IMG/VR virus record: IMGVR_UViG_3300045988_062804
Reading direction: 5' to 3' (one strand)
DNA: 64,000 nucleotides
Source of the DNA: a virus
Below, piece after piece: positions 303 through 63,219 of the stretch. Position numbers and translations under genes: made by a program. The notes under the pieces were generated by a model. That model was not told where the DNA came from. It saw only the letters and a program-made list of their open reading frames with translations, and made no database searches. Numbering within the stretch: the first letter of the stretch is position 1; every line of letters begins with the position of its first letter.

Positions 303-977
303 TTAACGAGGTGCTTGATTATTAGGTAATATAGGAGCTGCTAGCTGTCTATAATAGCGTAGCTTTTTCTCTGTTAATCTTTTCTTTATTTCAGCGTCGA
401 TGAAAGTCATATTATTAATGTCTAATGCAGAACAACATCCATAAGTTTGTAACTGACGTGGATCTTTGAATATACCTACCACAGATACTTGCTTTATAAC
501 TGGCAGATTGAATATCCAGCAATCATACATATTGTTGGCATTAGGAGTAACATCAATATATACATAGGGTCTATTCTTAGCCCTCTTTCTATATTTATGA
601 TACTGCATTACTGTTGGGCTTATGTACCATATAAATGGCTGACCTTTATCAACAGAACCTATATATTCAATTCCTCCTCCGAACTCAGTTAGTAACTGTG
701 GTATTTCAAAGTGGAATGTTGGCGTACCATCTGTTTTATTGCCACAGGTACAGCTCTCTATATCCTTACAGTCTACGTTGATACAATTAATAGACATTAA
801 TAAATCCCTCTTAGGAATAAGCCCTTTCATGGAATATTCCTTAATGATTTGCAATCTTTCATCTACAATATCATCTTCTAGTTGTTCTATTGATAATGTG
901 TTTGTAGTAGTATAACCTCTAAGTCCAGACACTATATCATTATAGATTGCAGATGCTAGTTTAAAATAATATCCCAT
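303..977 (-). CDS. hypothetical protein (late/structural module)
   Basis: 224-aa ORF packed tightly in the minus-strand operon. No recognisable motif. Confidence 0.6.
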   Translation of the reverse strand: MGYYFKLASAIYNDIVSGLRGYTTTNTLSIEQLEDDIVDERLQIIKEYSMKGLIPKRDLLMSINCINVDCKDIESCTCGNKTDGTPTFHFEIPQLLTEFGGGIEYIGSVDKGQPFIWYISPTVMQYHKYRKRAKNRPYVYIDVTPNANNMYDCWIFNLPVIKQVSVVGIFKDPRQLQTYGCCSALDINNMTFIDAEIKKRLTEKKLRYYRQLAAPILPNNQAPR

Positions 978-3116: not shown

Positions 3117-3953
3117 TTATTTCTTAGATGCACTTTCTTCTAAGTACATATCGGGATAAGTATCTCTCTTAATAAGTTCAAGTACCTTACTGTTAGTAGG
3201 GTTCTTCATCCAAGTGATTACTGCATCGTCAGTTGCACCTAATACAATGCTATCACCATATAGATAAACCTTATTCTTAACGTATATGACATTCTTGTCT
3301 TTAGCGTCAATAAACATCAATCTCAGATTAATATCTCCACCAGTGTACAGGTCAATAATCTTCTCTGGAGATTTATGTGATATTTCAAGCAAGTAGTCTG
3401 TAATATCTGCGTCTGGTGCGTTACGCATATTCTTGCCAAGCAATCTAGCTTTAAGTGCTCTACCTTCTGCACCTTTAGGGTCACCATAGATGTAAGAGTC
3501 AGCATCATGGATAAGTTTCTTCTTAGAGATTCTCTTAGCAGTATCATATCCAGGTCTTTCTACATATAGTTCAGCTGTACCATAACGAGCACGAGCCTTA
3601 CCCTCAGCTATTTCACCATCAATTAGTAAATTTCCTTTAGAGTCCCTTGCATCTCTTGATAATGCAATAAGAGGACAATGTTGTATTGAGTGCCACTCAG
3701 CAGCCTGCCATTCATCATTTAGGTTAAATGTAGTACCATCTTCAATGATGAACACTTTATTCTCAGGAATAAGTGGTTTACCTTCATTTCTATCCTTATC
3801 AGAGATAATCATATCACCCTTACTATCTACTGGTCTCACGCAGTCAGGGAATCTACCAGTTCTTGGGTCCCTAACAGGATTCATGAAGTACTTCTGTCCA
3901 ACTTTACCGAACACACTTCTTAAAATAATTATATCGTCTAAAACATCAGCCAT
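3117..3953 (-). CDS. hypothetical head-module protein
   Basis: 278-aa ORF. No motif recognised. Confidence 0.55.
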   Translation of the reverse strand: MADVLDDIIILRSVFGKVGQKYFMNPVRDPRTGRFPDCVRPVDSKGDMIISDKDRNEGKPLIPENKVFIIEDGTTFNLNDEWQAAEWHSIQHCPLIALSRDARDSKGNLLIDGEIAEGKARARYGTAELYVERPGYDTAKRISKKKLIHDADSYIYGDPKGAEGRALKARLLGKNMRNAPDADITDYLLEISHKSPEKIIDLYTGGDINLRLMFIDAKDKNVIYVKNKVYLYGDSIVLGATDDAVITWMKNPTNSKVLELIKRDTYPDMYLEESASKK

Positions 3954-4056
3954 ATTAATTCGTATTTTTATTGTATATCATACATCATCTTTATAATGAG
4001 TATGAGAGGGACTATAGATTAGCCCCTCCCAACACATCTTGATTATATGTTTTTTA

Positions 4057-5478
4057 TTACGCTTCTTTCATAATGAAGCTTCTGTATGGAGAGAATACTC
4101 CAACACCAGAATAACCCCAGTTGATTACCTTAGATGCAGCTGTAGTACTTGAAACGATACCAGAGCTTAGACCATCTAAACCACCAACACCAGGATACTT
4201 GTTAGTAATGAAGTCACCACCCTTTAATGTGAACATTTGGATAGCTGGTTCACCGCTAGTCTTATCAGCAGTAAGGTCAAGCATTAGACCAAAGCCCTTC
4301 TCAGAACCCCATTCACGAGAGAATGTTCTGTCCACCTTGAATGAAATAGTGTTACCACCTATTTCATAACTATTGAATGTAGCACCAACGTCTACATATC
4401 CGTTAGCCTTCTTAGACCATAGATAAGTACCACAAGTTTTGAATCTTGCAAGCCACTCTGATAGGCAGCTTTGGATGTCATTCCACATCTTCTCGTTACA
4501 GATGAATACATACTTATTACCAGTTGGGTTTTCACTCTTCTCATTCATCATAGCCATAGCTGTAGTGAACGCTTCTGGAGTAAGTTTATTGTAAACATAC
4601 TTAGATGCAAATCTTTCGATTTGTGGGATGATACCGTCACCAATGTAGATTGGACGACCAGTGTCAGGGTCAGAGATTGTCGGTTTACCATTCTTATCTA
4701 CGTTAGTCTTATTGAATAATAGACCTTGGTTACGAACTTCCAAGAAGTTTCTTAATAGATTCTTCTCAAGGGTATCCATCTTGTACATTGTTTCCTTAAC
4801 AGCACCATTGCCTTCACCCTTACCAATGCTGATAAATGTTTGCTCTAGTGGCTTGAATAGAGAAGTATAGCTGTCATCAACACGGTGTGTAGTGATGTAA
4901 CCTCTATGTCTCTCAATGTTAGATTGATACTTAACATAACCCTCTTCGTGTGCCTCAGGCATAGCGTTAGATTGGAATCTTGTAGTGTCACCAATCTGGC
5001 ATCCGTCTAGGTCTAGGATTGAAGAATAGTCGTTATCAATTAGTCTTACTTCAACAGTCCAATAATTATCTGCAACTCTTGTAGGTCTGGAGATAACTTG
5101 GCATTGCTGCATTGTTTTGTCAATCTTAAAAATGTCATACTTCTGGTAATAGTTCTCTTTGAAAGCCATTACGATGGTTGTACCACCTTCACCATTAGTT
5201 GCTGGAACATCTGCGAACTCAACCCTCTTGATGTAGTTGGTTTCAACTTCCCACTCGAAGTACATACTATCAATACTTCTATATTTGCTATTTGACTTAG
5301 AATCCATGTAGAAGATGTTTCTTAGAGATTCTGTCAAGTAAGAAGCAGTTAGGTTAGGGTAGAGTCTTGAAACTATACCAAGTCTAGTTGGTTTTGTGCC
5401 TAAGAACTTATAGAAATCTTCATAAGTTCTAGTTTCGCTCATTGTAGGGCGATTGGTTACGAAATTTGCTACTATCAT
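4057..5478 (-). CDS. putative major capsid protein
   Basis: 473 aa, directly downstream of a highly acidic scaffold-like gene. Size and position fit an HK97-fold MCP. No direct homology check was possible. Confidence 0.5.
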   Translation of the reverse strand: MIVANFVTNRPTMSETRTYEDFYKFLGTKPTRLGIVSRLYPNLTASYLTESLRNIFYMDSKSNSKYRSIDSMYFEWEVETNYIKRVEFADVPATNGEGGTTIVMAFKENYYQKYDIFKIDKTMQQCQVISRPTRVADNYWTVEVRLIDNDYSSILDLDGCQIGDTTRFQSNAMPEAHEEGYVKYQSNIERHRGYITTHRVDDSYTSLFKPLEQTFISIGKGEGNGAVKETMYKMDTLEKNLLRNFLEVRNQGLLFNKTNVDKNGKPTISDPDTGRPIYIGDGIIPQIERFASKYVYNKLTPEAFTTAMAMMNEKSENPTGNKYVFICNEKMWNDIQSCLSEWLARFKTCGTYLWSKKANGYVDVGATFNSYEIGGNTISFKVDRTFSREWGSEKGFGLMLDLTADKTSGEPAIQMFTLKGGDFITNKYPGVGGLDGLSSGIVSSTTAASKVINWGYSGVGVFSPYRSFIMKEA

Positions 5479-5494
5479 ACTTTATAATTTAAAT

Positions 5495-6586
5495 TTAATC
5501 TAAATCATCAATTGTTAATACTTTCTTAGCAGGGGCAGCCTTACTACCTGCTGGTTTTTTGACCACTATCTTAGCTGCATTTGGAGCTTTACCTCCTTTA
5601 GCATCCTCAAATCCTTTATTATAATTGTATTTGGATGCTTCTGTAATCTTCTGTTTGTAATAATCAGAAATTTGACTAAACGCCTCCTGTCCTTTAAGTG
5701 CATACCAAACCATACCCACCAAGGTCTTAGGGTCATTCAATGCTTTAGCAATGTGTCTCACTCCTGCAACATCTGAATCTAAGATAAAGCTAGCAATTTC
5801 ATTCATATCGTCCTCAGACAAGGTTAGTGAGGACTCACCCAAGTCAATGGTATCATTCTCTTGAATTGCAGCTACAATAGTATCTTCGAACTCTTGAGCA
5901 GCTTTCTCTGCTGCTAATCTTTGTTCTTCTTCCTCTTGTTGAGCTAGCAACTCTTCTTTCTTCTTATACTCGTTGCGGATACCTTGAACCTTCTTCTGAT
6001 ATAATACTTCGTGCTGTTTAGCTAATTCTAATTCAGCAGCAGCATCTTCGTCAGTAAGCTCTGGGATTTTAGCTTTTAAATCTATAAGATACAGTTCATC
6101 ATCTGGAATGGAATCAACCTCATAGGTAGGAGTTTCTGAATCATTACTAGCTAAGTACTCTTGAATAGCTTGTTGAGCAATATATTTCTTATATTCCTCT
6201 GCACTCAGATTGTTCTCTCTTAACTCGTTAATAAGGCTAACCTCATCTTCTGCTAAACCATAATCGTCATTTGACTCATCATAATTTAGGATTTGAAGCT
6301 GCTCTTCTCTTGAAAGCTCATTAAAACTCTTCTCTTCGATTTCTCCTGTTTCACTCTCGAATTTGATAGCTTCAGGATTGATTCCTTTATCTTTTAGTAG
6401 GGCAACGATAATGTCCTCGTCTTCTGTCTCATTAGTTAGCTCATCCTCGTGAACTTCCTCGTCTTGTGGTACAGAACCATCAAGCCACGGCTTCTCATAG
6501 GTGTCCTCGTCAAACCCGGCTTCGTGAGTTACGTCTTCGTCTAATCCTACATCGTCAATGTCTAAATCCTCTAATTTCATATCCAT
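5495..6586 (-). CDS. acidic coiled-coil protein, putative scaffolding protein
   Basis: Extremely D/E-rich with predicted coiled coils, sitting just upstream of the putative MCP. The track ORF starts at 6676, but that extension runs through a hairpin (AGGGGTGT / ACACCCCT, about 6629..6680) following the amidase gene. The start at M31 (MDMKLEDL, ATG at 6586) is preferred. Confidence 0.5.
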   Translation of the reverse strand: MDMKLEDLDIDDVGLDEDVTHEAGFDEDTYEKPWLDGSVPQDEEVHEDELTNETEDEDIIVALLKDKGINPEAIKFESETGEIEEKSFNELSREEQLQILNYDESNDDYGLAEDEVSLINELRENNLSAEEYKKYIAQQAIQEYLASNDSETPTYEVDSIPDDELYLIDLKAKIPELTDEDAAAELELAKQHEVLYQKKVQGIRNEYKKKEELLAQQEEEEQRLAAEKAAQEFEDTIVAAIQENDTIDLGESSLTLSEDDMNEIASFILDSDVAGVRHIAKALNDPKTLVGMVWYALKGQEAFSQISDYYKQKITEASKYNYNKGFEDAKGGKAPNAAKIVVKKPAGSKAAPAKKVLTIDDLD

Positions 6587-6685
6587 ATTATTCCCTTTTA
6601 AAGTTATTTGCAAAATTAAGGAAATTTTAGGGGTGTCCAAAATGAAATACTGAAATTCATTAATATTTGAGAACACCCCTAATTA

Positions 6686-7279
6686 TTATCCTTGTATTGC
6701 CTTGATATAATCCAATATACCCTGTACGTGCAGGCGAGCTATAGTTGCTCTACCCTCATCTGATAGTAGGTACTCTACGTCTACCTTATTATCTTGAAAC
6801 AGATTCTCTGTTAAAACTGCTGGGCATTTAGTCTCCCTACATATAGCTAGATTCTGCTTCCAATATACTTGTGTTTGTGAATATTTCCTTAGTGTTAAAC
6901 CCTCTTTACGTGCTGCTTCAAACAAGCACTCTGCCAGTCTCTTACTCTTACTTGAGCTATTGTTGGAGATGAATACACTCCAACCTTTAGCGTTCATCCA
7001 ATCTGCCCCGCTACCAGCAGCATTACAGTGAATCGACACCAATACAGTATTAGCTTTTCCATGTGTATCACAGTATTGGTTTACTATTCGGCATCTTTGC
7101 ATAAGTGGTACATCTACATCATCTGTAACTACCAACTCAACATTAAAGCCTTTATCAGTTAATTGTTTCTTTACCTCGTTAGCAATCTCTCTGCAATATT
7201 TATACTCCCTAAGTCTTCCGTCTGGACTTCTTTTACCTGGAGTAGACTCTCCGTGACCTGCATCTAATAGAATTATCAT
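6686..7279 (-). CDS. N-acetylmuramoyl-L-alanine amidase (Amidase_3-type endolysin)
   Basis: Contains the motifs ILLDAGHGESTPGKRSP and SIHCNAAG, typical of zinc amidase_3 (CwlD/AmiC-like) enzymes. Confidence 0.75.
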   Translation of the reverse strand: MIILLDAGHGESTPGKRSPDGRLREYKYCREIANEVKKQLTDKGFNVELVVTDDVDVPLMQRCRIVNQYCDTHGKANTVLVSIHCNAAGSGADWMNAKGWSVFISNNSSSKSKRLAECLFEAARKEGLTLRKYSQTQVYWKQNLAICRETKCPAVLTENLFQDNKVDVEYLLSDEGRATIARLHVQGILDYIKAIQG

Positions 7280-7623
7280 AGTTTACTAAATTTTAGACAA
7301 GTGTCAAGAGTTGATAATGTTATCTTCCCCTCGCTGTCAAGCTCTTGTATTCTCTTCTTTATAATTCCAAGTTGAGAATAATTAATGTCTATTTCCTTTT
7401 GTATATCTTTACTTGGATTCCATTTAATTTGACCACCATCCTCTTTATACTGTATCTCATCCTTCTCCTCATCTGTAAATCTTAGTGACTTTACTAACTC
7501 TACAATTTCAACTAAGTCACTCATATTGCCTGCTGTAGGAAGCATAGCAATTATAGTTAGCCTATCTCTAATACTTAAGTTTACAACCATAATATTACGT
7601 ATGAAAATCCATAACCAATCCAT
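7276..7623 (-). CDS. hypothetical protein
   Basis: 115-aa ORF whose stop overlaps the amidase start (translational coupling). Confidence 0.5.
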   Translation of the reverse strand: MDWLWIFIRNIMVVNLSIRDRLTIIAMLPTAGNMSDLVEIVELVKSLRFTDEEKDEIQYKEDGGQIKWNPSKDIQKEIDINYSQLGIIKKRIQELDSEGKITLSTLDTCLKFSKL

Positions 7624-10600
7624 CTCTTACTGTAAGATAAACGTGTCCTCTACCAGATACCTTATACGTACCAGAACGGGGAATATTTAGTTTAGGTTTA
7701 CCGTCTGCCTCATAACCTTCTACAAACCCAAACCCTTCAGCATACGTTCTTTTTGTACTAAGTGAGAACCCATCGAACCATGCTGCCCATACTTCACCTT
7801 TACCTGGGTATCTAGCAGTCTTCTCTGAATTTACTGATGTAAATATTCCTGCACCCATCATAGTAAATACCATAATAGGCATAGCCCATACTCCAGTCTG
7901 GATTTTAATGCAAGTTTCCCAATCATTTCCAATCCAGCTATAATTAACAGATGCCCATCCAAGCTCTATCTTCTTGTCTGTACCACCTCCGTAGTCAAAT
8001 GTTTCCCACTCTAACCTGTTACTTCCATCTTTGTTGAGCTTAAATCCCCCAATCTGTCCATCATAAGCTGTGATGTCCCAGCATTTGATGTTAGTTGCCC
8101 TAACTTTCTTGAAGTCACAATCTTGTGCCCATATGTTTCCGTATTTACTAACTGTGAAGAATGGCTGGAACTCACCATCCACCTCGTGACCAACACTTAA
8201 TCCTCTTGATTGAATCCAACCATTAACGTCTAAAACTGCCTCTATGAATTGCCCATTATCATTAAATAGTCCACCTAGGGTCATAGCCTTGTTATCAGCT
8301 ATATTAAACCTAAATTGGTCAGCATTCATGTAAATCTCGGTCTTGTTCCTGTAAGTAGGATTGCCATTCTCGTCTAGAATAGGTTCACCTTCAAGATTTA
8401 AAGCTGGTACTTGGTCAATAGTCCCATCTTTGTTAACTACATCCCTAATTTCTAAACCTGCATTCCTAAACTTCAATAATATACTCTCTTCTGAGAAGTC
8501 CACTATAGAAGTGCCATTATTAAGGTAGAACTCTCCAGTTAAGAATACATTCTCACCGTATAACCCAAATCCATATGGCTGTTTATTACCAAAGATTTCA
8601 TTATAGATTCCATCTAGGTTTCCTACCCTTACTCTTGTTGTTTTAGTGTAAGCGTGCCTATACTTACCATCTTTTACAACTAACTCTGAGTCCTTAGTTG
8701 GATAAAGAGTGCCATAGTACTCCTTGCTCCCAATTCTGATGGGAGTTATATAATCTACATTACTAGGGGGCTGGTTCTCTTGCAGATAGTAATTATACTT
8801 TATTCCATTATACTTAAACGTGGTACCATCTTGCCTATATATATACTCGTGTCTCCTATAGATTGGAATATCATACAGTACTGAGTAGTCAGGTCTATTT
8901 AGACCACTAATTACGTCAATAAACGGACCATCATCATCACATGAGGTTAAATAGATAGCATTTTGTCTTTGCACATCATAAATGTTGCCCATCTGAATCA
9001 TATCATCACCAGGGGCTATATCATCTACTCTAGCTTCTGTGGTTTTAGATGAGGAGTTCGATTCCAGTCTACCCGTGATTGGATTATAACTCTTCTCAGT
9101 CTTAGTATACTGAGTAGTATTATATTCTTCTTTATAATCCTTAACTGAACCATTCTCGTTATAATGTATCTCAGTATACTTATCGAATACTGAAACTGCT
9201 TTCTGAACTATAAACTGTCTTGTCCCTATTTGTGTTAGTACTATAGCATCATAGTACTTTATGTTGCCATTAGTATATTTTTGACATCTAATAATGTCGC
9301 CAGCCTTGAACATTGGATATTCATCACCATCAGTATTTACAATCCACAAATTAGGCACTGTAGCTGTAGGTACGTACCCATTATCAAACTCTGAGTTTGA
9401 TTCCTGTATGGCAGAGTTTATTATAGATGTTTCAAGAGCGAAATACTTGTAGTAAGGATATATTTGGAATATATACCTACGTGCCTCCCCTTGTGAGGTA
9501 GCCTGCTCATATAAGTCCGTGTATAACTTACCAGAAGTTGGCTCAATACCCTTAGGTATCATAAATAACGGAAACTTTTTATCAAAAGTATCTCTATACT
9601 CCCATTCTATAGGTTCTGTACCTTCATCCCATTGTCCTTCATTACCTCCCCATTTAGTTACTACTATCTCTTTACTAATGTAATATAAACTTATGCAACT
9701 GAGAAGTGCTGTGTGATTTGCATCACCACTAGATGATGTTAATAAAGCTTCATCATACAATGTTTGCATTCCCTTAAATAGAGGATTATTAACTAAACCC
9801 ACAGGGTCCTTTACATGTATAATAAACTTATAGTTTACGAATGCCTTACTATTCCTATTTATCTCACTTGGTCCTGATAGCTCAGAAGTTAGCGAGATTG
9901 TACTCTCGATATTTGTCCCATTACTAGGAATTGGTAAATAGTATGTATTGCTCTTGATAATCTTAAGAGCTGCGTCTTTATTTTCTGCTGAGCCTGTCCA
10001 GGATGCAATACTCCTTAGTTCTTTATCAGTTAATATAGTGGGTTGCACAGCAGACTCACATTTACTGGAATTACTAACCCATATACTTCCATTAGTAGCA
10101 CTAATCTTGTTGATTACCATCTCATATACTTTCATAGCCTTGCGAACTACAAGATAGTCAATGGTTAACGTATTAGTGTCTGCGTCAAGTCTCCAACCAT
10201 AGCCACCAAACCCTGATGCAAACTCTGGGGAGGTAATACTTCTACTTGTTACTAAATCTCCATACATTCGGACATTCTCCTTAAAAGTCCAGTTATTCTC
10301 TGACACACCTTTGCCCTTAAATGTCCAATTACCTGTAATGTATTCATCTACTTTCTTCTTAGCCAAATCATCTGCGGAGTAACCACCTATAAATTCGGCA
10401 TTTAGATTGTTTACCAACTTAGAAGAAGCCACTATTAAAGGAGGACCAACAGTGTTAATTTCTAACTGTCCTGTCATTGTGTCTCCCTTACGCCTTACAT
10501 ATCCATCACCAGCACCTTCTGCTGCCTCTATTAGGGCTACATATCTCTCATCATAAGAAATATATAGGGTAGTTGTAAGTGTATTATAAATGAAGAATCC

Positions 10601-36052: not shown

Positions 36053-36430
36053 TTATACGTTGAAGTCAGCTCTAACTTTAGTTTTGATTTCTCCTACTAG
36101 TGTAAGATAGTCTAGGTATTTCTGTCTATCAGTTTGATTATCAGATAATCCTAATACAATACTGTTGGAGCTGTTGATTAAATCAAACTCTTCATCTTGG
36201 TCTACATACTGCCTAATAATAGCTTTAATGCATTCTTTATGGTCTGGTTGACCATGTAGATGAACCTGAACATATGTCCACCTTGTTTCTTGTGTTACAT
36301 CTTCTGTTTCTGGGTCTATAACATCAACCACCTTTGACTTAATGTCATAGTTATAGTAATATGTGCCATTACCTAGTTTCTCTATTGAGTTAGGTTGTAC
36401 ATTCATTTCTATTCTTCTTGGTTCTAACAT
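36053..36430 (-). CDS. hypothetical protein downstream of the DGR reverse transcriptase
   Basis: 125-aa acidic ORF overlapping the RT 3' end by 41 nt. It does not look like the helical, basic Avd protein. Confidence 0.5.
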   Translation of the reverse strand: MLEPRRIEMNVQPNSIEKLGNGTYYYNYDIKSKVVDVIDPETEDVTQETRWTYVQVHLHGQPDHKECIKAIIRQYVDQDEEFDLINSSNSIVLGLSDNQTDRQKYLDYLTLVGEIKTKVRADFNV

Positions 36431-37625
36431 AAGGTCTTATTTTAAAATTTACTGGGAATGAATATCTGGTTAGAGAGTAGAATAGGTCCCTACTCTTGCT
36501 CTCAAAGTAATAAGATTTGTTATTGTACACAAAGTTAACCCTAAAACACTTGCTATAGCTAACCATATCTACAACATGAATATACTTGTTATAAAATCTT
36601 GAAATATTAGACTTCTTCCCATCCCAATTAGAGAACCTTAAACCTGTATCTCTTTGAATCTTTCTTAATAGATTCTTAGAATTACAGAACTTTAGCCAAC
36701 CAAAGTATGATTGCATTCTCCTTCTCAATTCCTGTCTGTCAATCTTACCAGACTGATATTTCCTAACAAGTCTGAATAGTCTAATCTTAATTGACTTCCT
36801 TAGTAATACATGGGTATGATAGAACCTATAACCTACAAAGTCTATACCTCTATCATCTACTGGGAATATTTGGTAATTTGATTTTAACCTTAAATTTAGA
36901 ACCTCCTTCAAGTACATCTTAATTGCTATAAGTACTGTTCTCAAGAAGTTCTTATCACTGCTGAGAATTACAATATCATCAGCATACCTGAAATAGAATT
37001 TACATTTCAACTCTTCCTTGACCCAATGGTCAAAGTAAGCTAAGTACAGATTAGCGAAGAACTGCGATAAGTAATTACCTATAGGAACTCTGTCGGCAGA
37101 ATATATGATTTCAATAAGCAATAGTAAAAGACCTTGGTCTTTAATCTTCTTCTTAATGATTTCACATAGTATGTCGTGATTAACAGATGGGTAAAACTTT
37201 CTGACATCCATCTTAAGACAGTACATTGTCTCCTCTGGATGTTTAGTTAATGCCGCTCTTAGGTCATAAGCTACATTATGAATTCCTCTATCTTTGATGC
37301 AAGAGTAAGTTTGCTTAATAAATATTTTAGTCCAAATAGGTTCCATCACGTTCATTATAGCGTGATGTGTTATCCTATCTGGATAGTATGGTAGTCTAAA
37401 TATCAACCTTTCTTTAGGTTCGTATATCTTAAACGTACTATACTCAGAGGTTTCATATACTAAGTCTTTTAATTGCTCAGATAACCTCTCATTCTCCTCC
37501 TGTCTATTCCTGTCATGCTTGAGGATTCCCCATCTAGCTGACTTATGCTTTCTAGCCTTATCATCAGCTTTCTCAATATTCTCTATATCATAAACCTTCT
37601 CATGTAAATAACCTATACGTTTCAA
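36390..37625 (-). CDS. DGR-type reverse transcriptase
   Basis: 411 aa. It has the RT catalytic box FRYADDIVIL (YxDD) and the motif PIGNYLSQFFANLYL, which matches the (I/V/L)GxxxSQ signature of DGR RTs. It sits directly 3' of a TR/VR pair. Confidence 0.9.
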   Translation of the reverse strand: MKRIGYLHEKVYDIENIEKADDKARKHKSARWGILKHDRNRQEENERLSEQLKDLVYETSEYSTFKIYEPKERLIFRLPYYPDRITHHAIMNVMEPIWTKIFIKQTYSCIKDRGIHNVAYDLRAALTKHPEETMYCLKMDVRKFYPSVNHDILCEIIKKKIKDQGLLLLLIEIIYSADRVPIGNYLSQFFANLYLAYFDHWVKEELKCKFYFRYADDIVILSSDKNFLRTVLIAIKMYLKEVLNLRLKSNYQIFPVDDRGIDFVGYRFYHTHVLLRKSIKIRLFRLVRKYQSGKIDRQELRRRMQSYFGWLKFCNSKNLLRKIQRDTGLRFSNWDGKKSNISRFYNKYIHVVDMVSYSKCFRVNFVYNNKSYYFESKSRDLFYSLTRYSFPVNFKIRPYVRTKKNRNECTT

Positions 37626-37771
37626 GTCTTATATATTTATTATGGAAGCTTTCGAGACTTAACCTACTAACACCCAGTTATTAAATACTACGTTGTCTTT
37701 TGCCAAGAGGCAAGGGTACTATTTAGACTGTAAAATGAAAACCAAATTACCTAAATAAAGAAATATATAAT

Positions 37772-37876
37772 AAGCCTACATTCGTATTAGCATTACTGAC
37801 TCCATTATTAGAATTGAAGTAGCTAAGACTAGCATTACTACCATTATTAGCGTTGCTGCTAACGATGAGTGTTTTA
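37772..37876 (-). repeat. DGR template repeat (TR)
   Basis: Non-coding ~105-nt copy of the VR. In the sense orientation it is rich in AAY/AGY codons (SSNANNGSNASLSYFNSNNGVSNANTNVG). All differences from the VR are at TR adenines. Confidence 0.9.
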
Positions 37877-37957
37877 TAGTAAATATAACTTGTCCAGCAC
37901 CAACAGTATGTAGGTAAATAGTACCCTAATCTCGTATTCTATCTATTGTATATTTTG

Positions 37958-39988
37958 TTAAACTGCCTTATTTAGTGTTCTGAAGCCCACATTCGTATCA
38001 GCATTACCGACCCCATAATGAGAATCGAAGTAGCCAAGACCAGCATTACCACCAGTATGAGCGCGGCCGCCAACGATGAGCGTTCTTAATGCTGTGCTTG
38101 AAGCATTGCAGTAGTGATAGTCACACATGTAAGTAGTAGCAGAACCGCCAACTACTGAAGGTATGATTTCACCAGTTTCTCCAAGGTCAAAGTCCTTTGT
38201 CCATCCATCAGCTGCTACTTCTGTACCAGCAACAGTCATCTTACCTTTAGCAGTATTATCGTCTCCGAATGCTGTTGGGTCAGTAGTAGTGTACACACTA
38301 CTTGGTTGATTAGCTTCTGTTCTCTCTAGGATAATGCCATCCAAGTTAGTCCAGATGTCTCCGAATGGATTATCGAATCCTCTCCATCTTGGAACCTTGA
38401 ATGTTTTAGATGCTACTGTCGTAGACTCATTTATTACTGTTTCAGGAATAACTAAATCCTTAACTCCAGTAAAGTTACCAATATCATTACAGTATCCGCA
38501 TGGTGTTAATGGGTAATAACCATTATAGTTATTCCAGTTAGTTCCATCCCATGTAGTAACACCATCTCCTAGTCCACCTTGATGATAACCATCAGCTGTT
38601 AAGTCAGCAGTGTAAGCCTTCTGTGAGTTTAGTGTAGCATACTCGATAACCCAAGCCCAGTAGAATATCCACTTGTAATATTCATAGCATAGCATTTCTG
38701 AACCAGCATTAGTAGCATAAGTTCTCATGTTTGCTCTTGAGATATTAGTTCTTGGCTTACCTAAATCACTCCTAAACTTATCTGTCTCCAAATATGTGTC
38801 ATTAGCTGTTCTGTTACCTCCACCCCTGAACTGAGTAGTGGTATTAACAACTGATACAGCTTTAGGAGTTGCGGATACAGTAGTATCAACAGTGCTTCTA
38901 TAAGCATCTACTAACATTTCTGGAATCTCAATCCACGTATCATCCATTTTAATAGTAGACATTCTAACCCATCTCTTAGTACCTTCAACTCCAGACTTAC
39001 CATAGAACTTAGGAATGTGTACCCTTACAGTACCATCAGTTCCATCAAGTACTGAATCACTTCCGTCAGCTTTCTTGGACCAGTCATTAGGGTCTAGGTA
39101 ATAATTAATCGTAGCTCCGTCAGCTACACAACCTTTATACTGAGATTGTACTGGTAATGACTTATGTAGTAATGGATTACCAATTCTAGTTAGTGTTGGG
39201 TCTGCTACTGTAGAATCCCATTCAACTCCGTAGGAGTAAATGTCTTCTAATCCAGTGTAATCAATTCCTCCTCCGCCTTGGTTATCTTGCCATTCAGCTG
39301 TTCCATCACCAGTATTTACTAGGATTTGTCCTTTAGCTCCTCCAGCTGGAATATGTTTGTTACCTGCTGTAGTAGGGTGTACATAGTTGTTAGCATTAGC
39401 TGCCACACCTTGTAGTTTAGTCTTCTCAGCTGTTGTATAATCTTCTGTAGATAATTGTTTACCTTCAACCTTATCCACCTTATTAGCTATCTTTGCTACT
39501 TCTTGCTTCTCAGCTGTTGTGTAGTCGTTAGTAGATAACTGCTTACCGTCTACCTTATCAACTTTTAGAGCAATAGCAGCTGTGCTTCTTGCCTCAGAAT
39601 CCTCAATAGCTTTATCTACTTGTGTCTTGTTGTAGTAACCTGTTAGGTCTACCTCTACGTGCTTATTACCTAAGAACTCCCATCCAGTCTTCTCACTAGT
39701 AACCATCCATATATATTCATCATATACATCGTTGGCTCTAGAGCCTTCATTAGGAACCATGTAAATGGTATTGGGATTACCCTTAGCTGGTAGTTCTGTA
39801 ACAACAAGAACTTTACCACCTGCATCAGCTATTGCATCAGTTACCCACTGTTCTGTAGCTAAACCTTCAATTACCTTATTAACAGTAGTTGACTTATTAG
39901 CCCCATTCTGAACGATAGGGATTAACTCATCACCAGCCAGTGTCGTAGCAGGGGTCATTTGAGAGATTTTAATGTCAGTTGCTGCCAT
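37958..39988 (-). CDS. DGR target: tail fibre / receptor-binding protein with C-terminal variable (C-type-lectin-like) region
   Basis: 676 aa. The fibre-like N-terminus is MAATDIKISQMTPATTLAGDELIPIVQNG, followed by repeated DKV(D/E)GKQLST(N/E)DYTTAEK motifs. The VR covers codons about 634-668, and the C-terminus ends VGFRTLNKAV (the GFR motif is common in CLec/FGE-fold DGR targets). Confidence 0.85.
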   Translation of the reverse strand: MAATDIKISQMTPATTLAGDELIPIVQNGANKSTTVNKVIEGLATEQWVTDAIADAGGKVLVVTELPAKGNPNTIYMVPNEGSRANDVYDEYIWMVTSEKTGWEFLGNKHVEVDLTGYYNKTQVDKAIEDSEARSTAAIALKVDKVDGKQLSTNDYTTAEKQEVAKIANKVDKVEGKQLSTEDYTTAEKTKLQGVAANANNYVHPTTAGNKHIPAGGAKGQILVNTGDGTAEWQDNQGGGGIDYTGLEDIYSYGVEWDSTVADPTLTRIGNPLLHKSLPVQSQYKGCVADGATINYYLDPNDWSKKADGSDSVLDGTDGTVRVHIPKFYGKSGVEGTKRWVRMSTIKMDDTWIEIPEMLVDAYRSTVDTTVSATPKAVSVVNTTTQFRGGGNRTANDTYLETDKFRSDLGKPRTNISRANMRTYATNAGSEMLCYEYYKWIFYWAWVIEYATLNSQKAYTADLTADGYHQGGLGDGVTTWDGTNWNNYNGYYPLTPCGYCNDIGNFTGVKDLVIPETVINESTTVASKTFKVPRWRGFDNPFGDIWTNLDGIILERTEANQPSSVYTTTDPTAFGDDNTAKGKMTVAGTEVAADGWTKDFDLGETGEIIPSVVGGSATTYMCDYHYCNASSTALRTLIVGGRAHTGGNAGLGYFDSHYGVGNADTNVGFRTLNKAV
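37983..38087 (-). repeat. DGR variable repeat (VR) at the 3' end of the fibre gene
   Basis: Gap-free alignment with the TR. By hand count there are 18 mismatches, all plus-strand T in TR versus C/G/A in VR, which means A in the sense strand. It encodes ...GGRAHTGGNAGLGYFDSHYGVGNADTNVGF. Confidence 0.9.
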
Positions 39989-40407
39989 TATTCAAATAAA
40001 ATTAAATCACCATTTTCTGTAACCATAAATTTACCATCTTCTAATATAATGTTTGCCAAATCCCTAAAGATTAGACCACCATCTTCTGTAAGTATATTAA
40101 CGCCAATTTCGGCAAGAATATTTCTAGTAACATCAGTAAGATAAATGTCCCCATTCTCTAACTTCCACTTGTCTACAACAACAGATTCATGTCCTTGTCT
40201 CTTGACTATCAGTGGATAACTGCTGTTCTCAAATCCTTTTAATATTACTTGTCCATTGGCATCAGTTATGTACTCCTTACCTTTAAAGATAACTATGGCT
40301 CCTACTAAAGGTAGCCCAGTACCTCTATCTATAATTCTAACTACAACTGAGATAACCTTCAGATTGGCTCTCCCAATATGGTTACCAATGCCAATATAAA
40401 TTCCCAT
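39988..40407 (-). CDS. hypothetical protein with carboxypeptidase-regulatory-like beta-sandwich motif
   Basis: 139 aa. The stretch GLPLVGAIVIFKGKEYITDANGQVILKGF resembles a CarboxypepD_reg-like domain. Confidence 0.4.
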   Translation of the reverse strand: MGIYIGIGNHIGRANLKVISVVVRIIDRGTGLPLVGAIVIFKGKEYITDANGQVILKGFENSSYPLIVKRQGHESVVVDKWKLENGDIYLTDVTRNILAEIGVNILTEDGGLIFRDLANIILEDGKFMVTENGDLILFE

Positions 40408-40674: not shown

Positions 40675-42897
40675 TTATGCGTTTTTAACTTCGTTATTCA
40701 TTTGATTACCATCGAATAATTGAGCATATTCAATGTCTGTTCTCTTAGTATCATTATCAGCATCACTCTGAGATTTGTCTCTTTGAGTCCTGGCATTATA
40801 CCAGTTAATATCAGCTTCATTCTGAACCTTCTGTCTTTCAATCTCCAACTTAGCCTCATTAAGACTTTCAATCTTACCTTGAGCTTGTTGTAGTTGTTGT
40901 TGTAACTTCTGATTCTCTTGTTGTAATTGTTCAAGCTGTTGTTGCATCTGACCCATCTCATTCATCTCCTTCTTCTTCTTAGCAAATGCTTTAGTAACCT
41001 TAGCTTTCAGTTCAGTAAGACTTCTGGCAGTTAAAGCATCAACAATCATATCTGGGTCTAATTGACCACTCTTTATAAGCTCAATAATGATTTGCTGAAC
41101 GTTCTGCATCTCCTTCATAATCTGAGTACTTGGCACAATGTGTACATCGTAATCAGTATGGGTGAAATGCTCTGGTAATGCTGTGAATACCTTTTGTAAC
41201 TTATCTCCAAGAATTAGAGTTCCAGTTAATCCTTTCTTCCATACTATCTTAGCTATATCAAGACAGTCTCTAAGGATGTCTATTGACAATGTATCCATAG
41301 TCTGATAGAATGGTTTAGTAATTGTATAGGAGTTCCTTGCTCCAGCTTCTACATTACTAACAGCATCCTTCTGTTGGATACCATTTAACCTTTCCCTAAA
41401 TACTCCTGTGATAGACGAAGTCTGGTCTTCTACTCTCTGTAATGCTAAGTCAAATGCTTGGATTGTTTGTACTTTAATAGTATCAGTAAATCCAGCAAAT
41501 GAAGTATTGTTATTAAATGCTCTACCTTCTTGACTTGTATCTACTAAGGCTACTCCAGTCTTCTTAAATGCTATCCACTTCTGTATTCTTTCAGTAAGGT
41601 CATCGCCTAATATAGTTGGAAGCATTGATAAGTCTAGCCAGTCTCCATCAGTACCACTATTAGCTAGAATATTATCTCTAAAGTAAGTAATTAAGTCATA
41701 CTTGTCTTGTAGGTGTGCACATTGTAATACTAAAGATTGTGGGACATTATCCCTATTAACCAGATATACACCATTAACAGATAGTCCGCATTTAGTAGGA
41801 GCATCCTTAGTTCTAATTACATTCTCTGATTTACCAGTAAGAACATATATTGACTGTCCTATTCTAACTCCCTCGTACCTATTCTGAACATACTCATCAC
41901 CTTCCTTATCTATGTCAATCCATTCAGTTTCATAGACTGGTAATAGCTTATAGTTGAATGACTCATAAGTATCTGCGGGGAATCCTGGAACAATACCTTT
42001 ACCAGCATCTAATCCAGCACCCTCGCCTTCCATAATAGGTCTACATCCTACTTGATTCTCCATAGCTCTAATATACATATAAGAACTATCAGAGTAATGT
42101 TCATACATATCCTCTAACTCAGCTCTACTCTCATCACTTAGGTCTTTGCCATACTCAACAAGAATCTGCTGTTTAGTCATCCATTTCCTAATCACAACCC
42201 TGTAACTATCCTTTACATAAGGAGATTCAGGGTTTCTATCAACAAATGTGTTTAATGGGTTAAGAACATCAATACTAATATTAGTTCCACTGGCTGATGG
42301 TTTGACCTTATAGAATGAGCATCCAGTAACAAGTAAGTCTAATAACAGTGCCTTTAGTTTATTAGCCAGGTCAGTGTTCCTTGATTGGATTACATACTCA
42401 ATAACGTTTTGTGCAGCTATCTCATAGTCACTAATGAAGTTATTATTAATATCTTCAATTAGCTTCTCTATGTCTGCCTCAACTGAAGCATCACTAACAT
42501 TACCCCCTCCTATAAAGGCTAGAATCTGATTGTTCAAATGCTTCTGTAAGAATGTATAGACTTGCTGACTTATTTCTAACTCCTTCTGTCTAGTAATCTT
42601 GGAGATTGTTTCCTTATCTTTGCAAGATACCTTTGGAAGAATTGGAATGTCTAAATACTCTCCAATTAAAGCATCAACGTGTTTCTTTATAAGAGGAGTG
42701 AACTCAATAGAAGTAGGATTACCTATTCCAAAGTTTTCTTCAAGATACCTAAATTGCTCGGCGTCTCTCTTACCGTTATAATAGTTGTATGCCTTCTGTA
42801 ACTTCCATTTGTTGAAGACTAACTCATTTACAGCTTTGTCAATCTTCTCTATCAAATAATCATCACTTCTTTGCTTTGCACTCATCTTCGTAATCAT
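40675..42897 (-). CDS. putative portal protein
   Basis: 740 aa, next to the terminase large subunit. It has a C-terminal Q-rich coiled coil. Assigned by size and synteny only. Confidence 0.55.
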   Translation of the reverse strand: MITKMSAKQRSDDYLIEKIDKAVNELVFNKWKLQKAYNYYNGKRDAEQFRYLEENFGIGNPTSIEFTPLIKKHVDALIGEYLDIPILPKVSCKDKETISKITRQKELEISQQVYTFLQKHLNNQILAFIGGGNVSDASVEADIEKLIEDINNNFISDYEIAAQNVIEYVIQSRNTDLANKLKALLLDLLVTGCSFYKVKPSASGTNISIDVLNPLNTFVDRNPESPYVKDSYRVVIRKWMTKQQILVEYGKDLSDESRAELEDMYEHYSDSSYMYIRAMENQVGCRPIMEGEGAGLDAGKGIVPGFPADTYESFNYKLLPVYETEWIDIDKEGDEYVQNRYEGVRIGQSIYVLTGKSENVIRTKDAPTKCGLSVNGVYLVNRDNVPQSLVLQCAHLQDKYDLITYFRDNILANSGTDGDWLDLSMLPTILGDDLTERIQKWIAFKKTGVALVDTSQEGRAFNNNTSFAGFTDTIKVQTIQAFDLALQRVEDQTSSITGVFRERLNGIQQKDAVSNVEAGARNSYTITKPFYQTMDTLSIDILRDCLDIAKIVWKKGLTGTLILGDKLQKVFTALPEHFTHTDYDVHIVPSTQIMKEMQNVQQIIIELIKSGQLDPDMIVDALTARSLTELKAKVTKAFAKKKKEMNEMGQMQQQLEQLQQENQKLQQQLQQAQGKIESLNEAKLEIERQKVQNEADINWYNARTQRDKSQSDADNDTKRTDIEYAQLFDGNQMNNEVKNA

Positions 42898-43177
42898 ATA
42901 ATTGTATGGCAGTGAAGTACTTAGTTCTTACTAAGCTTCTCTCCTTTAATTCTTTCTCAATAAACTTCATAAATTCCTCAGCCGTCCCATCACACGCAAT
43001 GGACAATGGCTTCTCATCTTTATTAAGTCCAAGGTCCATTCTATATCCCACGTGCTCAGGTTCCTCACCTGGAAATTTATAAGTGGTTTCGTAAACCTTT
43101 AGGACTCCTTGATACTCTACACAATACAAAGATTTAATTAAATCTCGTATCGCTTGTTCGATGTCCTGTGTCGTCAT
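42863..43177 (-). CDS. hypothetical protein
   Basis: 104-aa ORF that overlaps both the terminase 3' end and the portal 5' end. Confidence 0.4.
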   Translation of the reverse strand: MTTQDIEQAIRDLIKSLYCVEYQGVLKVYETTYKFPGEEPEHVGYRMDLGLNKDEKPLSIACDGTAEEFMKFIEKELKERSLVRTKYFTAIQLYDYEDECKAKK

Positions 43178-62692: not shown

Positions 62693-63192
62693 GGGCTTGT
62701 ATGGTTTTGACAGGCGATTACGAGTTAGTAAGACGTGTAGAGTTGGCACCAACTCTTTAATAATGATGCACAATTTTAAGTGGAAACACTGAAGTAAGAA
62801 TGGCAGCCTAAGCTGCTGGCTTATCAGTATTTATATTGATTAAGTCGGGTTAATTGGAGAGACCTAGAAACAGAAGAGGATTGACAAACGTCATTAACCG
62901 AACGCTCTAAGAGTTAGTAAGCCGAAATCTCCACTACCTAGCTATGGGTTACAAATAGACGTTCTCCAACGTAAATGGAGTGGTGGAGCGACCGTTCGGT
63001 CAAGCCCAGTTTGGTAGTTTGTGAACAACTAAGTCGTAGCCTTACGAGGAGACGTAATTGGTGAATTAACACTCAGCTTCTTAGTAAAACTATCTACATG
63101 CTGAACTCAACAGCTGATGTAATAAAATAGAGACACACGTAATCTTATTAATGAGAGTTGTTTGGACGGCAGTTCGATTCTGCCCAAGTCCA
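62693..63192 (+). ncRNA. ssrA: phage-encoded tmRNA (ssrA-like), about 500 nt
   Basis: The 5' GGGCTTG (62693..62699) pairs with the 3' CAAGTCC (63185..63191), giving a 7-bp acceptor stem with a G3:U70 wobble (the alanine identity element), then discriminator A. The T-arm GGCAG-TTCGATT-CTGCC (63168..63184) is preceded by GGAC as in tmRNAs. The 5' GGGCTTGTATGGTTTTGACAGGCG parallels the bacterial GGGGCUGAUUCUGGAUUCGACGGG. A long-range 7-bp helix joins GATTACG (62716..62722) to CGTAATC (63138..63144) and is P2-like. The candidate tag frame is GGA AAC ACT GAA GTA AGA ATG GCA GCC TAA (62782..62811), with the stop in the loop of the GCAGC-CTAA-GCTGC hairpin. CCA is not encoded. Confidence 0.72.
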
Positions 63193-63219
63193 CATTGTAT
63201 AACTAATCGACAAAGAATT

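Follow-up and report, generated by a model that had tools for sequence, protein, structure and literature searches.

A diversity-generating retroelement without Avd at a tail fiber gene of a putative large crAss-like gut phage

The locus described here lies on the minus strand of a 64-kb window (the whole 64,000-nt stretch analyzed, IMG/VR record IMGVR_UViG_3300045988_062804), and raises the question of whether a repeat pair beside a reverse transcriptase (RT) gene belongs to a diversity-generating retroelement (DGR) that still rewrites a tail fiber. The cassette is read, with high confidence, as an active, Avd-less DGR with the order target-variable repeat (VR)-template repeat (TR)-spacer-RT, located in the structural module of what is probably a large gut phage of crAss-like type. 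The grounds are its anatomy, the family of its RT, the restriction of between-genome variation to adenines, RNA covariation and context statistics. crAss-like phages carry crAss-type structural and packaging genes, with genomes of ~150-190 kb in the 'Zeta' group. TerL of the window phage is ~30% identical to those of classified Crassvirales and 59% identical to that of an unclassified gut phage contig, Pfam CrAss_Ring_2 is matched at 306..977 and relatives assemble to ~183-189 kb; TerL, CrAss_Ring_2 and the ~188-kb relatives suggest that the element resides in a large crAss-like gut phage of the Zeta group. The main coding and repeat features are:

36053..36430, minus strand: 125-aa ORF overlapping the 3′ end of the RT gene, 47% identical to cr7_1 gp04
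36390..37625, minus strand: predicted DGR reverse transcriptase, 411 aa, conserved TTG start; RVT_1, PHROG 1423 and bRT matches
37772..37875, minus strand: TR, 104 nt, non-coding, 36 adenines
37983..38086, minus strand: VR, 104 nt, defined by alignment with TR
37958..39988, minus strand: target gene, 676-aa tail fiber/tail protein (PHROG 5302 'tail protein' at 3.6e-89)

Repeats, reverse transcriptase and target gene

A script recount on the minus strand aligned TR (37875..37772) with VR (38086..37983) over 104 nt without gaps, at an offset of 211 nt. All 18 mismatches are TR adenines replaced in VR (13 by G, four by C, one by T), affecting 18/36 TR adenines, with no non-adenine mismatch inside the 104 nt (hypergeometric P = 1.4e-10 versus random placement). 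The preliminary description had given ~105 nt, ungapped, with 18 mismatches and none at non-A positions; the count, the lack of gaps and the restriction to adenines held on recount, but the length did not, and the outer coordinates (37876 and 38087) were 1 nt too far, this outermost column being T/A, a non-adenine mismatch. In-frame translations, unchanged on recomputation, are KTLIVSSNANNGSNASLSYFNSNNGVSNANTNVG for TR and RTLIVGGRAHTGGNAGLGYFDSHYGVGNADTNVG for VR, the latter spanning residues 635-669 of the 676-aa target protein, and TR adenines occupy codon positions 1, 2 and 3 in 20, 12 and four cases, respectively. TR is non-coding and falls within the 332 nt that separate the target stop codon from the RT start, where it is covered by no ORF of ≥50 aa, and no second VR-like copy was found in the 64-kb window. 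TR/VR homology stops at GT(A/G)GGCTT, with complete divergence beyond. In Bordetella phage BPP-1, VR and TR have been defined as ending 3′ in IMH and IMH*, respectively, with a hairpin or cruciform downstream of VR. In the window neither a long GC-rich IMH nor an extended IMH/IMH* pair was seen at the TR and VR 3′ ends, and no inverted repeat or hairpin was found downstream of VR.

The adjacent 411-aa ORF matches Pfam RVT_1 (1.7e-17) and PHROG 1423 (1.5e-112), and its closest PDB relative is Bordetella bRT (8ub7_A; 161 bits, E 4.5e-46, residues 7-328 aligned), whereas retron and group II RTs in PDB reach ≤55 bits (7.7e-14 or weaker). The YADD and IGNYLSQ motifs noted at first reading were located at residues 214-217 and 182-188, and equivalents of bRT R74 and I181 are retained; [I/V/L]GxxxSQ is the signature motif of DGR RTs, which also have a YxDD catalytic box, and R74 and I181 have a role in adenine mutagenesis (PMC7826257). 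Judged by these matches the ORF is a DGR-type RT, as first proposed, rather than one of group II or retron type. NCBIfam, which has no DGR RT model, scores it far below cut-offs (TIGR04416, 97 vs 300 bits; retron St85, 61 vs 235; Drt3a, 46 vs 200). These scores argue against a group II intron, retron or defense RT, as does the lack of an associated RNA family, no intron or retron (msr/msd) RNA families being found in the region. Residues ~329-411 form an extra C-terminal domain (~83 aa) that has no counterpart in bRT, is conserved in the RT of crAssphage LMMB and is missing from that of Bacteroides phage Versailles.

About three-quarters of DGRs include Avd or another accessory gene, which is therefore not universal, and Bordetella cDNA synthesis requires Avd. 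Within the window, to which the search was confined, no Avd-like Pfam match was found in neighboring ORFs or in 42 small ORFs. The element had been called 'complete', a term to be qualified for the lack of Avd in the window, which is normal for the crAss-type lineage (PMC7290462, PMC12386605).

Homologs of the target labeled tail protein or tail-collar fiber occur in cr7_1, cr85_1, crAssphage LMMB and p-crAssphage (gp54). The VR domain, in which VR ends in a …VGFR motif, gave no Pfam or PDB sequence match, and two AlphaFold2 models of it, from an alignment that held only three closely knit subfamilies, had mean pLDDT of 38.2 and 42.1. Display of VR on a ligand-binding fold, C-type lectin or Ig-like, is a DGR trait. 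Targets in Zeta crAss-like phages are likewise tail fibers with VR in the C-terminal domain, which the authors model with AlphaFold3 as a C-type lectin (PMC12386605). Other ORFs of the window (961, 1786 and 1080 aa) match tail-fiber PHROGs, so that the earlier mention of at least three other fiber-like genes was roughly right. In Porphyromonas phage005b, a phage without an RT, a distant homolog of the 125-aa ORF follows the tail gene directly, and in phage Versailles one follows the RT; by position and homology the ORF is a tail-gene partner, neither DGR component nor accessory gene, and the TR-RT cassette is an insertion that separates it from the target gene.

Variation across related genomes

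Variation was assessed by comparison of assembled genomes; across 44 related TR/VR pairs from IMG/VR there are 1001 adenine mismatches versus 50 others. Among 17 close relatives VR entropy is 1.03 bits at TR-A columns versus 0.065 bits elsewhere, and TR is almost invariant in relatives (entropy ~0 at adenine columns). VR peptides are nearly all different (116 distinct among 119 close homologs, 92-100% identical), and a TerL protein identical to that of the window occurs on 77 contigs, an identical target protein on two. In 10 genomes sharing an identical TerL protein, variable columns per 100 nt number 26.9 in VR, 2.9 in TR (0-2 TR differences), 1.6 in RT and 0 in the 146-nt TR-RT spacer; mosaic variation (7.6-9) is seen in the portal gene and in the target gene outside VR. 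Variable VR columns fall on TR adenines in 27/28 cases in this set, in agreement with the expectation that variation would be neither absent nor random. From these comparisons the DGR is evidently active in the lineage, VR changing at TR adenines while TR stays constant. In one relative (L013) TR is shortened by a 7-nt deletion and 18 mismatches lie at non-adenine positions, and in another (L079) the cassette looks recombinant.

Decay of the element in the window genome itself, leaving TR/VR and RT remnants beside a fiber that is no longer diversified, appears improbable. In its favor are the frequency with which Alpha crAss-like phages carry incomplete or decayed cassettes (PMC7290462), the state of the L013 repeats, and variation known from between-genome comparison rather than from within one sample. 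However, the RT reading frame is unbroken and retains every catalytic motif, the spacer RNA is invariant, the window TR/VR pair is free of non-adenine mismatches and the window TR is identical or nearly so to TRs of relatives whose VRs all differ. Strain recombination plus diversifying selection, with an RT from a group II intron, retron or defense system, could be invoked from the mosaic target and portal genes, the L079 cassette and the identity of the nearest NCBIfam models (group II, retron and Drt3a RTs), but is very improbable, since it cannot yield a VR pattern confined to adenines of a separate non-coding copy (27/28 columns; 1001 vs 50 mismatches), and the sub-cut-off NCBIfam scores, the bRT match and the lack of an intron or retron RNA family also oppose it.

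RNA structure around the template repeat

The following elements, predicted from sequence, flank TR:

37915..37926, minus strand: 5′ arm of a long-range helix, GGGUACUAUUUA, pairs with 37714..37725
37761..37770, minus strand: AU box 1, UUAUAUAUUU, begins 1 nt beyond TR; may pair with AU box 2
37714..37725, minus strand: 3′ arm of the long-range helix, UAAAUAGUACCC, pairs with 37915..37926
37697..37713, minus strand: stem-loop UUGCC-UCUU-GGCAA (37700..37713) plus unpaired A's, adjoining the 3′ arm without a gap
37629..37638, minus strand: AU box 2, AAAUAUAUAA, lies a little upstream of the RT start codon
37624..37717, minus strand: spacer RNA resembling Rfam RT-17 (RF03020), full-length match, 28.5 bits, E ~1e-3

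The 12-bp helix bracketing TR has compensatory double changes in 4/12 pairs (26 cells), with 90.9% of cells paired versus 34-59% in slid controls, and appears in the single-sequence MFE fold; LMMB and cr7_1 have equivalent arms, of the same architecture but different sequence. The stem of the short stem-loop is invariant in 47 relatives, and its LMMB counterpart, UUACC-UCUU-GGUAA, carries a G-C to A-U compensatory change. In the Bordetella 'cPRT Stop', sequences up- and downstream of TR form a distal duplex, after which come a short stem-loop and adenosines (bioRxiv 10.1101/2023.10.23.563531). As predicted here, the helix, stem-loop and adenosines match this design, in a DGR that has neither an Avd gene nor, in further distinction from BPP-1, the conserved Avd-binding stem-loop right after TR.

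AU box 1 is also invariant in 47 relatives, and RNAalifold pairs it (37761..37770) with AU box 2 (37629..37638). LMMB and cr7_1 have complementary boxes at matching positions but of different sequence (shuffle p 0.002-0.04); both boxes are AU-only, partly palindromic and invariant within the main lineage, and their pairing is putative rather than proven. This candidate TR-end duplex would pair downstream of the 3′ arm (pseudoknot order), not upstream as in BPP-1.

The spacer resembles RT-17, without membership of that family, as its score of 28.5 bits is below the Rfam gathering score of 40.4, as are scores at the equivalent site in relatives (cr7_1, 38.6; L081, 34.7; LMMB, 30.5 bits), although the matches are full length and in the same place in all four lineages. 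Shared with RT-17 are the location immediately upstream of the RT gene, a CCUUGCC-UCUU-GGCAAAA hairpin and a UAGUAG...CGAA internal-loop hairpin; the Rfam model has no long-range 5′ arm. RT-17 (RF03020) was described by Weinberg et al. 2017 (PMC5737381), and RT-10, a motif of that series, is the spacer between TR and RT in BPP-1.

Outcomes at template adenines and relation to known elements

Replacement of TR adenines varies with the following base: those before G become G in ~93-95% of cases, synonymous sites included, those before A or T become all four bases and those before C mostly G or A. This spectrum is measured after selection, in related genomes that are not fully independent samples, and only synonymous sites, all of which precede G, are free of protein-level selection. 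Four-fold synonymous adenines gave G 50, A 4, C 0 and T 0, compared with G 147, T 166, A 131 and C 76 at AAY first positions (C+T, Fisher p = 2.6e-14), and the second position is G in 59/104 cases for AAC versus 49/411 for AAT (p = 2e-20). The LMMB lineage replicates the effect (A before G: G 83, A 3, T 1), with TCA|G mostly changed to TCG and AAA|G always bearing G as its third base. TR AGY codons thus appear to behave as hidden glycine codons: because A before G becomes G, seven AGY (Ser) codons would be delivered as a GGY (Gly) scaffold.

Alternatively, mutation may be random and only all-glycine proteins survive, so that protein-level selection rather than context-dependent misincorporation explains the glycines. 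This is unlikely but carries more weight than either alternative to the DGR itself. In its favor, the glycines are part of a scaffold with the conserved pattern GG.A..GG.AG.G, Ser, Cys and Arg occur as rare survivors and every dataset is post-selection. It does not account for the synonymous adenines before G (G in 50/54, never C or T), for the LMMB TCA|G and AAA|G outcomes or for the strong difference between AAC and AAT second positions at equivalent hypervariable codons, and some equivalent positions are occupied by Ser and Ala in phage Versailles. Dependence of bRT misincorporation on the 3′ neighbor of the adenine has also been established experimentally (PMC12875486). In the window DGR A before G becomes G almost always, and A before C becomes G rather than C, in both respects unlike BPP-1.

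Under context-dependent misincorporation by an active DGR, a minus-strand transcript from ~37926 to 37625 would fold so that the 12-bp helix closes a TR-containing loop, followed by the short stem-loop plus unpaired adenosines and then by the RT-17-like RNA, which ends at the RT start codon. RT would bind this RNA, in a presumed RNA-RT complex with a presumed priming site, and copy TR to cDNA, misincorporating opposite adenines only, with the outcome at each set by the 3′ TR base and AGY (Ser) becoming GGY (Gly) scaffold codons. The cDNA would presumably integrate at the 3′ end of the tail fiber gene in place of the 104 nt homologous to it. Within residues 635-669 this would rewrite ~13 codons that vary freely, most of them AAY, with roughly at least 1e13 protein variants possible. 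If the fiber tip binds the host receptor, such diversification may allow receptor switching.

The experimental prototype, Bordetella BPP-1 (mtd-avd-TR-brt), shares with the window a related RT, adenine-only changes carried from TR to VR into a tail fiber C-terminus and a structured TR-RT spacer RNA, but has no counterpart of the extra RT domain, and the window TR is AAT/AGY-rich rather than AAC-rich. crAssphage LMMB (Intestiviridae; Viruses 2020, PMC7290462) has a target homologous to that of the window (29-31% identical across the C-terminal 430 aa), an RT 60% identical including the C-terminal domain, TG-VR-TR-RT order without Avd, AGY-for-Gly codons in TR, and the same long-range helix, stem-loop plus A-run, AU boxes and RT-17-like spacer. 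It differs in phage family and genome size, in the sequences of helix arms and AU boxes, in TR/VR homology that reaches further 3′ (identical IMH/IMH*) and in an unrelated ORF downstream of RT. DGRs from crAss-like phages of the Zeta group (2025, PMC12386605) also lie in large genomes, with tail fiber gene-VR-TR-RT in a structural block, mostly no Avd, and RTs of ~399-414 aa with GxxxSQ and a variable C-terminus; that paper describes neither TR-flanking RNA structure nor adenine-context dependence.

In the literature searched no report was found of a covarying TR-bracketing helix with cPRT Stop design in an Avd-less DGR, of an RT-17-like spacer, or of the change of A before G to G and the hidden glycine codons. 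The element itself is of a known kind, since the target-VR-TR-RT layout has been published for LMMB and for Zeta phages; DGRs of this kind are thus already described in crAss-like phages, of which the one in the window is a good but ordinary example.

Composition of the element and its phage

In a script recount after 36300..40100 was re-read, TR (37875..37772) and VR (38086..37983) aligned on the minus strand without gaps over 104 nt, with 18 mismatches, all 18 at TR adenines (13 become G, 4 become C and 1 becomes T). With 36 adenines in the TR, the probability of 18 random mismatches all falling on adenines is 1.4e-10. The repeat pair proposed in the preliminary description is real, but its ends at 37876 and 38087 add one T/A non-adenine column, so that the extent is 104 rather than 105 nt; the translations, AAY/AGY codon design, 411-aa ORF and IGNYLSQ and YADD motifs reported there were all found again on re-examination. 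VR encodes residues 635-669 of the 676-aa ORF at 37958..39988. No further VR-like copy was found within the 64-kb window, and neither an IMH/IMH* pair of extended length nor a hairpin near VR was seen at the locus.

Genes and domains beside the repeats
36390..37625, minus strand: reverse transcriptase (RT), the 411-aa ORF; TTG start; Pfam RVT_1, 1.7e-17; phage RT PHROG 1423, 1.5e-112
36390..36638, minus strand: extra C-terminal domain of the RT, residues ~329-411 (~83 past the end of bRT); beta-rich, basic
36053..36430, minus strand: 125-aa ORF, PHROG 11557; 41-nt overlap with the 3′ end of the RT gene

The best match of the RT among solved structures is by far bRT, the RT of the prototype DGR of Bordetella phage BPP-1 (8ub7_A; E 4.5e-46, 161 bits, residues 7-328), while retron-type and group II RT structures reach at most 55 bits. 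Counterparts of bRT R74 and I181, which promote adenine mutagenesis, I181 being residue 1 of the DGR signature [I/V/L]GxxxSQ (PMC7826257), are kept in the alignment. The RT falls far under the cut-offs of the group II, retron and Drt3a models of NCBIfam, a collection without any DGR RT model. Its TTG start (37623..37625, minus strand; TTGAAA...) is kept throughout the window lineage and in the crAss-like phage cr7_1 (NC_055895.1), and is ATG in crAssphage LMMB (Intestiviridae); low RT expression may be the effect.

The extra C-terminal domain is also present in the LMMB RT (60% identity overall) and missing from bRT and the RT of Bacteroides phage Versailles. It had no match in Pfam, NCBIfam or PDB, and a homologue search with RT residues 320-411 returned just 27 short gene-call fragments. 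No protein resembling the accessory variability determinant (Avd) was found among the neighbours or the 42 small ORFs of the window, and Avd is likewise missing from published crAss-type cassettes (PMC7290462, PMC12386605). The extra domain may compensate for this absence.

The 125-aa ORF, which is acidic and has no Pfam match, has homologues behind the tail gene in cr7_1, IAS virus, Bacteroides phage Versailles and Porphyromonas phage005b, whether an RT is present or not. A role as Avd substitute was ruled out by the homologue directly after the tail gene in phage005b, which lacks an RT; the ORF is instead a conserved partner of the tail protein. Since this homologue adjoins the tail gene in the RT-less phage, the TR-RT cassette is read as an insertion between the fibre and partner genes.

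The 676-aa target matches PHROG 5302 (tail protein, 3.6e-89); many crAss-like phages have homologues, p-crAssphage gp54 among them, that carry the annotation tail protein or tail-collar fibre. Further fibre-like genes had been proposed nearby, and the 961-, 1786- and 1080-aa ORFs of the window do match tail-fibre PHROGs. The N-terminal half of the target contains 84-nt (28-aa) tandem fibre repeats, KVDKVxGKQLSTxDYTTAEK (39400..39600, minus strand; also at about 3950..4200 in the related IMG/VR loci L013, L018 and L022), and the 961-aa neighbour has this motif too (Pfam Phage_fiber_rpt), which suggests possible module exchange between fibre genes.

The VR domain had no match in Pfam (E up to 10) or PDB (phmmer and profile searches). 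AlphaFold2 models of the target C-terminus reached pLDDT 38 (431 aa, 58 sequences) and 42 (210 aa, 147 sequences), the inputs being near-identical hypervariable copies among the matches listed. AlphaFold3 models of Zeta crAss-like target proteins contain a C-type lectin domain (PMC12386605), and VR here ends in ...VGFR, making this fold a candidate for the VR domain. Receptor switching through the fibre is a reasonable inference by analogy with the DGR prototype.

The window TerL has only ~30% identity to classified Crassvirales, a small ORF matches Pfam CrAss_Ring_2, and related contigs cluster at 183-189 kb, features compatible with the ‘Zeta’ crAss-like group. The RT has far closer relatives in Suoliviridae (cr7_1, at 70% nucleotide identity) and Intestiviridae (LMMB) than TerL has, in agreement with the report that such RTs are common to different crAss families (PMC12386605). 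In cr7_1 (4500..8500) ORFs, those of the RT and DGR target among them, are broken in the standard code, with stop-codon reassignment and a nearby tRNA gene; around the window DGR every ORF is intact under table 11. At 62693..63195 (plus strand) the window has a full-length match to Rfam tmRNA RF00023 (93.3 bits; gathering score 47), with a good acceptor/T-arm domain, a length of 503 nt owing to a large insertion, and the end CCACAU instead of CCA. ARAGORN found no tRNA or tmRNA in the window, and the Zeta crAss-like paper (PMC12386605) does not mention a tmRNA; the segment looks like a phage-borne tmRNA-like gene.

Homing across related genomes and the 3′ neighbour of TR adenines

An IMG/VR scan gave 456 relatives of the RT, and 80 of the 456 loci were retrieved for comparison. 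In the 44 loci with both repeats, comparison of each TR with its own VR gave 1001 adenine and 50 other mismatches; 18 of the latter come from a single locus with a 7-nt TR deletion (L013), which may be a decaying cassette. Across the 17 closest loci TR is almost constant, and VR columns have an entropy of 1.03 bits where TR has adenine versus 0.065 bits elsewhere. Among the matches listed, 119 close protein homologues (92-100% identical) comprise 116 distinct VR peptides. The window's TerL protein occurs unchanged on 77 contigs, its target protein on 2.

Variable columns per 100 nt in 10 genomes with identical TerL (9.3 kb TerL-to-RT alignment)
VR: 26.9
TR: 2.9
TR-RT spacer: 0
RT: 1.6
TerL: 1.4

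Between these assembled genomes, as distinct from within one population, 27 of the 28 variable VR columns lie at TR adenines, the restriction of polymorphism anticipated in the preliminary description. The portal gene (40675..43133) and the non-VR part of the target (38087..39988) have 7.6-9 variable columns per 100 nt versus 1.4 in TerL, a pattern indicating probable DGR-independent mosaic recombination in the structural module.

The locus has the defining features of a DGR: an RT of the DGR clade, adenine-only TR/VR differences, a VR at the target gene's 3′ end and a non-coding TR adjoining the RT. The element is a DGR with mutagenic homing evidenced lineage-wide, and the original interpretation is supported.

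At several TR adenines practically every VR has G, and the internal ones among them all precede G in TR. VR bases in 58 distinct TR/VR pairs were tallied according to the base 3′ of each TR adenine; these counts are post-selection and come from related genomes, and every clean synonymous site has one context (before G).

VR base by 3′ neighbour of the TR adenine
Before A: G 147, A 131, T 166, C 76
Before T: G 52, A 260, T 39, C 78
Before C: G 114, A 65, T 4, C 4
Before G: G 359, A 23, T 2, C 0

Adenine before G becomes G in about 93-95% of VRs, synonymous sites included (window TR and relatives L002-L094); before C it becomes mainly G or A, and before A or T any of the four bases. Because adenines before G become G, AGY codons are delivered as Gly: the seven TR AGY (Ser) codons are Gly in 107-118 of 119 proteins among the matches listed. 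Selection on scaffold glycines is not the whole explanation, since synonymous adenines before G also turn to G. Four-fold synonymous third-position adenines (GGA, GCA and GTA, all before G) gave G 50, A 4 and C/T 0, versus a C+T share of 46% at AAY first positions (Fisher p = 2.6e-14). In equivalent hypervariable codons the second A is G in 59/104 for AAC versus 49/411 for AAT (p = 2e-20). A-to-I editing of TR RNA was considered as a source of the A-to-G bias and dropped for want of supporting evidence.

The LMMB lineage provided a replicate (A before G: G 83, A 3, T 1): in most of its genomes TCA followed by G is converted to TCG, and AAA followed by G always has its third base changed to G. 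The TRs of cr7_1 and LMMB share the AGY-for-Gly design, whereas that of Bacteroides phage Versailles uses GGT for these glycines. Insertion by bRT opposite adenine was shown by experiment in 2026 to be dominated by the 3′ neighbour, a notable case being G insertion in the NAC context, ascribed to slippage (PMC12875486). The near-deterministic A-to-G outcome before G is not reported in that study, nor mentioned in the DGR literature searched.

RNA around the TR

The 146-nt TR-RT spacer is the best-conserved stretch of the locus. It matches Rfam motif RT-17 at full length but below threshold (28.5 bits; gathering score 40.4; E about 1e-3), and similar matches lie at the equivalent position in cr7_1 (38.6 bits), relative L081 (34.7) and LMMB (30.5). 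RT-n motifs are located beside RT genes; one of them, RT-10, is the TR-RT spacer of BPP-1, and other RT-n motifs were guessed by their authors to be DGR parts (PMC5737381).

RNA elements around the TR
37915..37926, minus strand: helix 5′ arm, GGGUACUAUUUA; 12 nt, 39 nt upstream of TR
37714..37725, minus strand: helix 3′ arm, UAAAUAGUACCC; exact complement of the 5′ arm, directly 5′ of the RT-17 hairpin
37761..37770, minus strand: AU box 1, UUAUAUAUUU; starts 1 nt past TR
37629..37638, minus strand: AU box 2, AAAUAUAUAA; just ahead of the RT start

The MFE structure of the window RNA, folded as a single sequence, includes the helix. Across 47 aligned distinct relatives, compensatory double changes affect 4 of the 12 pairs (26 cells), and 90.9% of cells are paired versus 34-59% with the partner slid 1-3 columns. 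These counts were made on named columns; RNAalifold on the whole 370-column alignment did not recover this long-range helix, MAFFT having misaligned the 5′ arm in one subgroup, which carries its own complementary arms (GGAUAUUACUU/AAGUAAUAUCC). In LMMB, arms of entirely different sequence (AAGGUUAUAUUUC/GAAGUAUAACCUU) occupy equivalent positions, and the stem-loop beside the helix differs by a compensatory change (UUACC-UCUU-GGUAA versus UUGCC-UCUU-GGCAA here); the cr7_1 helix has 13 bp with one mismatch. In relative L079 the 5′ arm belongs to one sublineage and the 3′ arm and TR end belong to a second one, a combination that breaks the helix; the locus is probably a recombinant. In L045 (about 5830..5990) the stem-loop and RT-17-like spacer segment are tandemly duplicated (CCTTGCCTCTTGGCAAAAAATAACG...CTCGAACACT twice). 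A 7-bp pairing in the single-sequence fold (CGAGAUU/AGUCUCG) was rejected, as relatives do not conserve it.

The helix, its adjacent stem-loop and the unpaired adenosines have the architecture of the Bordetella cPRT Stop, in which a distal duplex closing the TR is directly followed by a short stem-loop and unpaired adenosines, as seen by cryo-EM of bRT-Avd-RNA; it was predicted in 207 of 278 surveyed Avd-containing DGRs, 47 also with the adjacent stem-loop (bioRxiv 10.1101/2023.10.23.563531). Here it occurs in Avd-less elements.

Both AU boxes are invariant in the main lineage, and in LMMB and cr7_1 boxes of other sequence, again complementary, lie in equivalent places (shuffle p 0.002-0.04). 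Pairing of box 1 with box 2 is kept as a hypothesis, given that both consist of A and U only and are partly palindromic. If the boxes do pair, the succession of 5′ arm, box 1, 3′ arm and box 2 would form a pseudoknot, in contrast to the nested Bordetella arrangement. A cDNA priming site analogous to Bordetella Sp A56, drawn by hand pairing of the TR 3′ end with the bases immediately 5′ of the helix 3′ arm, fits the window lineage and fails in the L034 lineage, and was dropped.

Implications for crAss-like DGRs

Tail-fibre-diversifying DGRs are known already from Alpha, Epsilon and Zeta crAss-like phages, having been described in crAss-like phages since 2020 (PMC7290462) and in the Zeta group since 2025 (PMC12386605), and the element alone adds little. 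Its relatives form a very well sampled natural data set, in which one abundant phage lineage of the human gut contributes hundreds of independent VR variants, the genomes being related. Of specialist interest are the conserved extra RT domain and three features of use for DGR study and engineering: the RNA architecture, a cPRT-Stop-like structure until now surveyed only in Avd-containing DGRs and here covarying and conserved in phage DGRs that lack Avd; the connection with the orphan motif RT-17, to which the TR-RT spacer corresponds by sub-threshold resemblance; and the context rule. As the adenine outcome hangs strongly on the 3′ neighbour, repertoire sizes computed from adenine counts are overestimates, and fixed residues can be encoded in TR by adenine-containing codons.

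A joint reading, plausible but tentative, is that the crAss-type RT, without Avd and with its extra C-terminal domain, turns adenine before G into G almost deterministically, on a TR presented by an RNA resembling a pseudoknot (a helix of cPRT-Stop type together with a duplex of the TR end with the segment before the RT start) unlike the nested Bordetella form. If this reading is true, the TR would harbour sites that never diversify, namely AGY ‘masked glycine’ codons and further AG sites, and the actual repertoire would be set by AAY and a few other codons.
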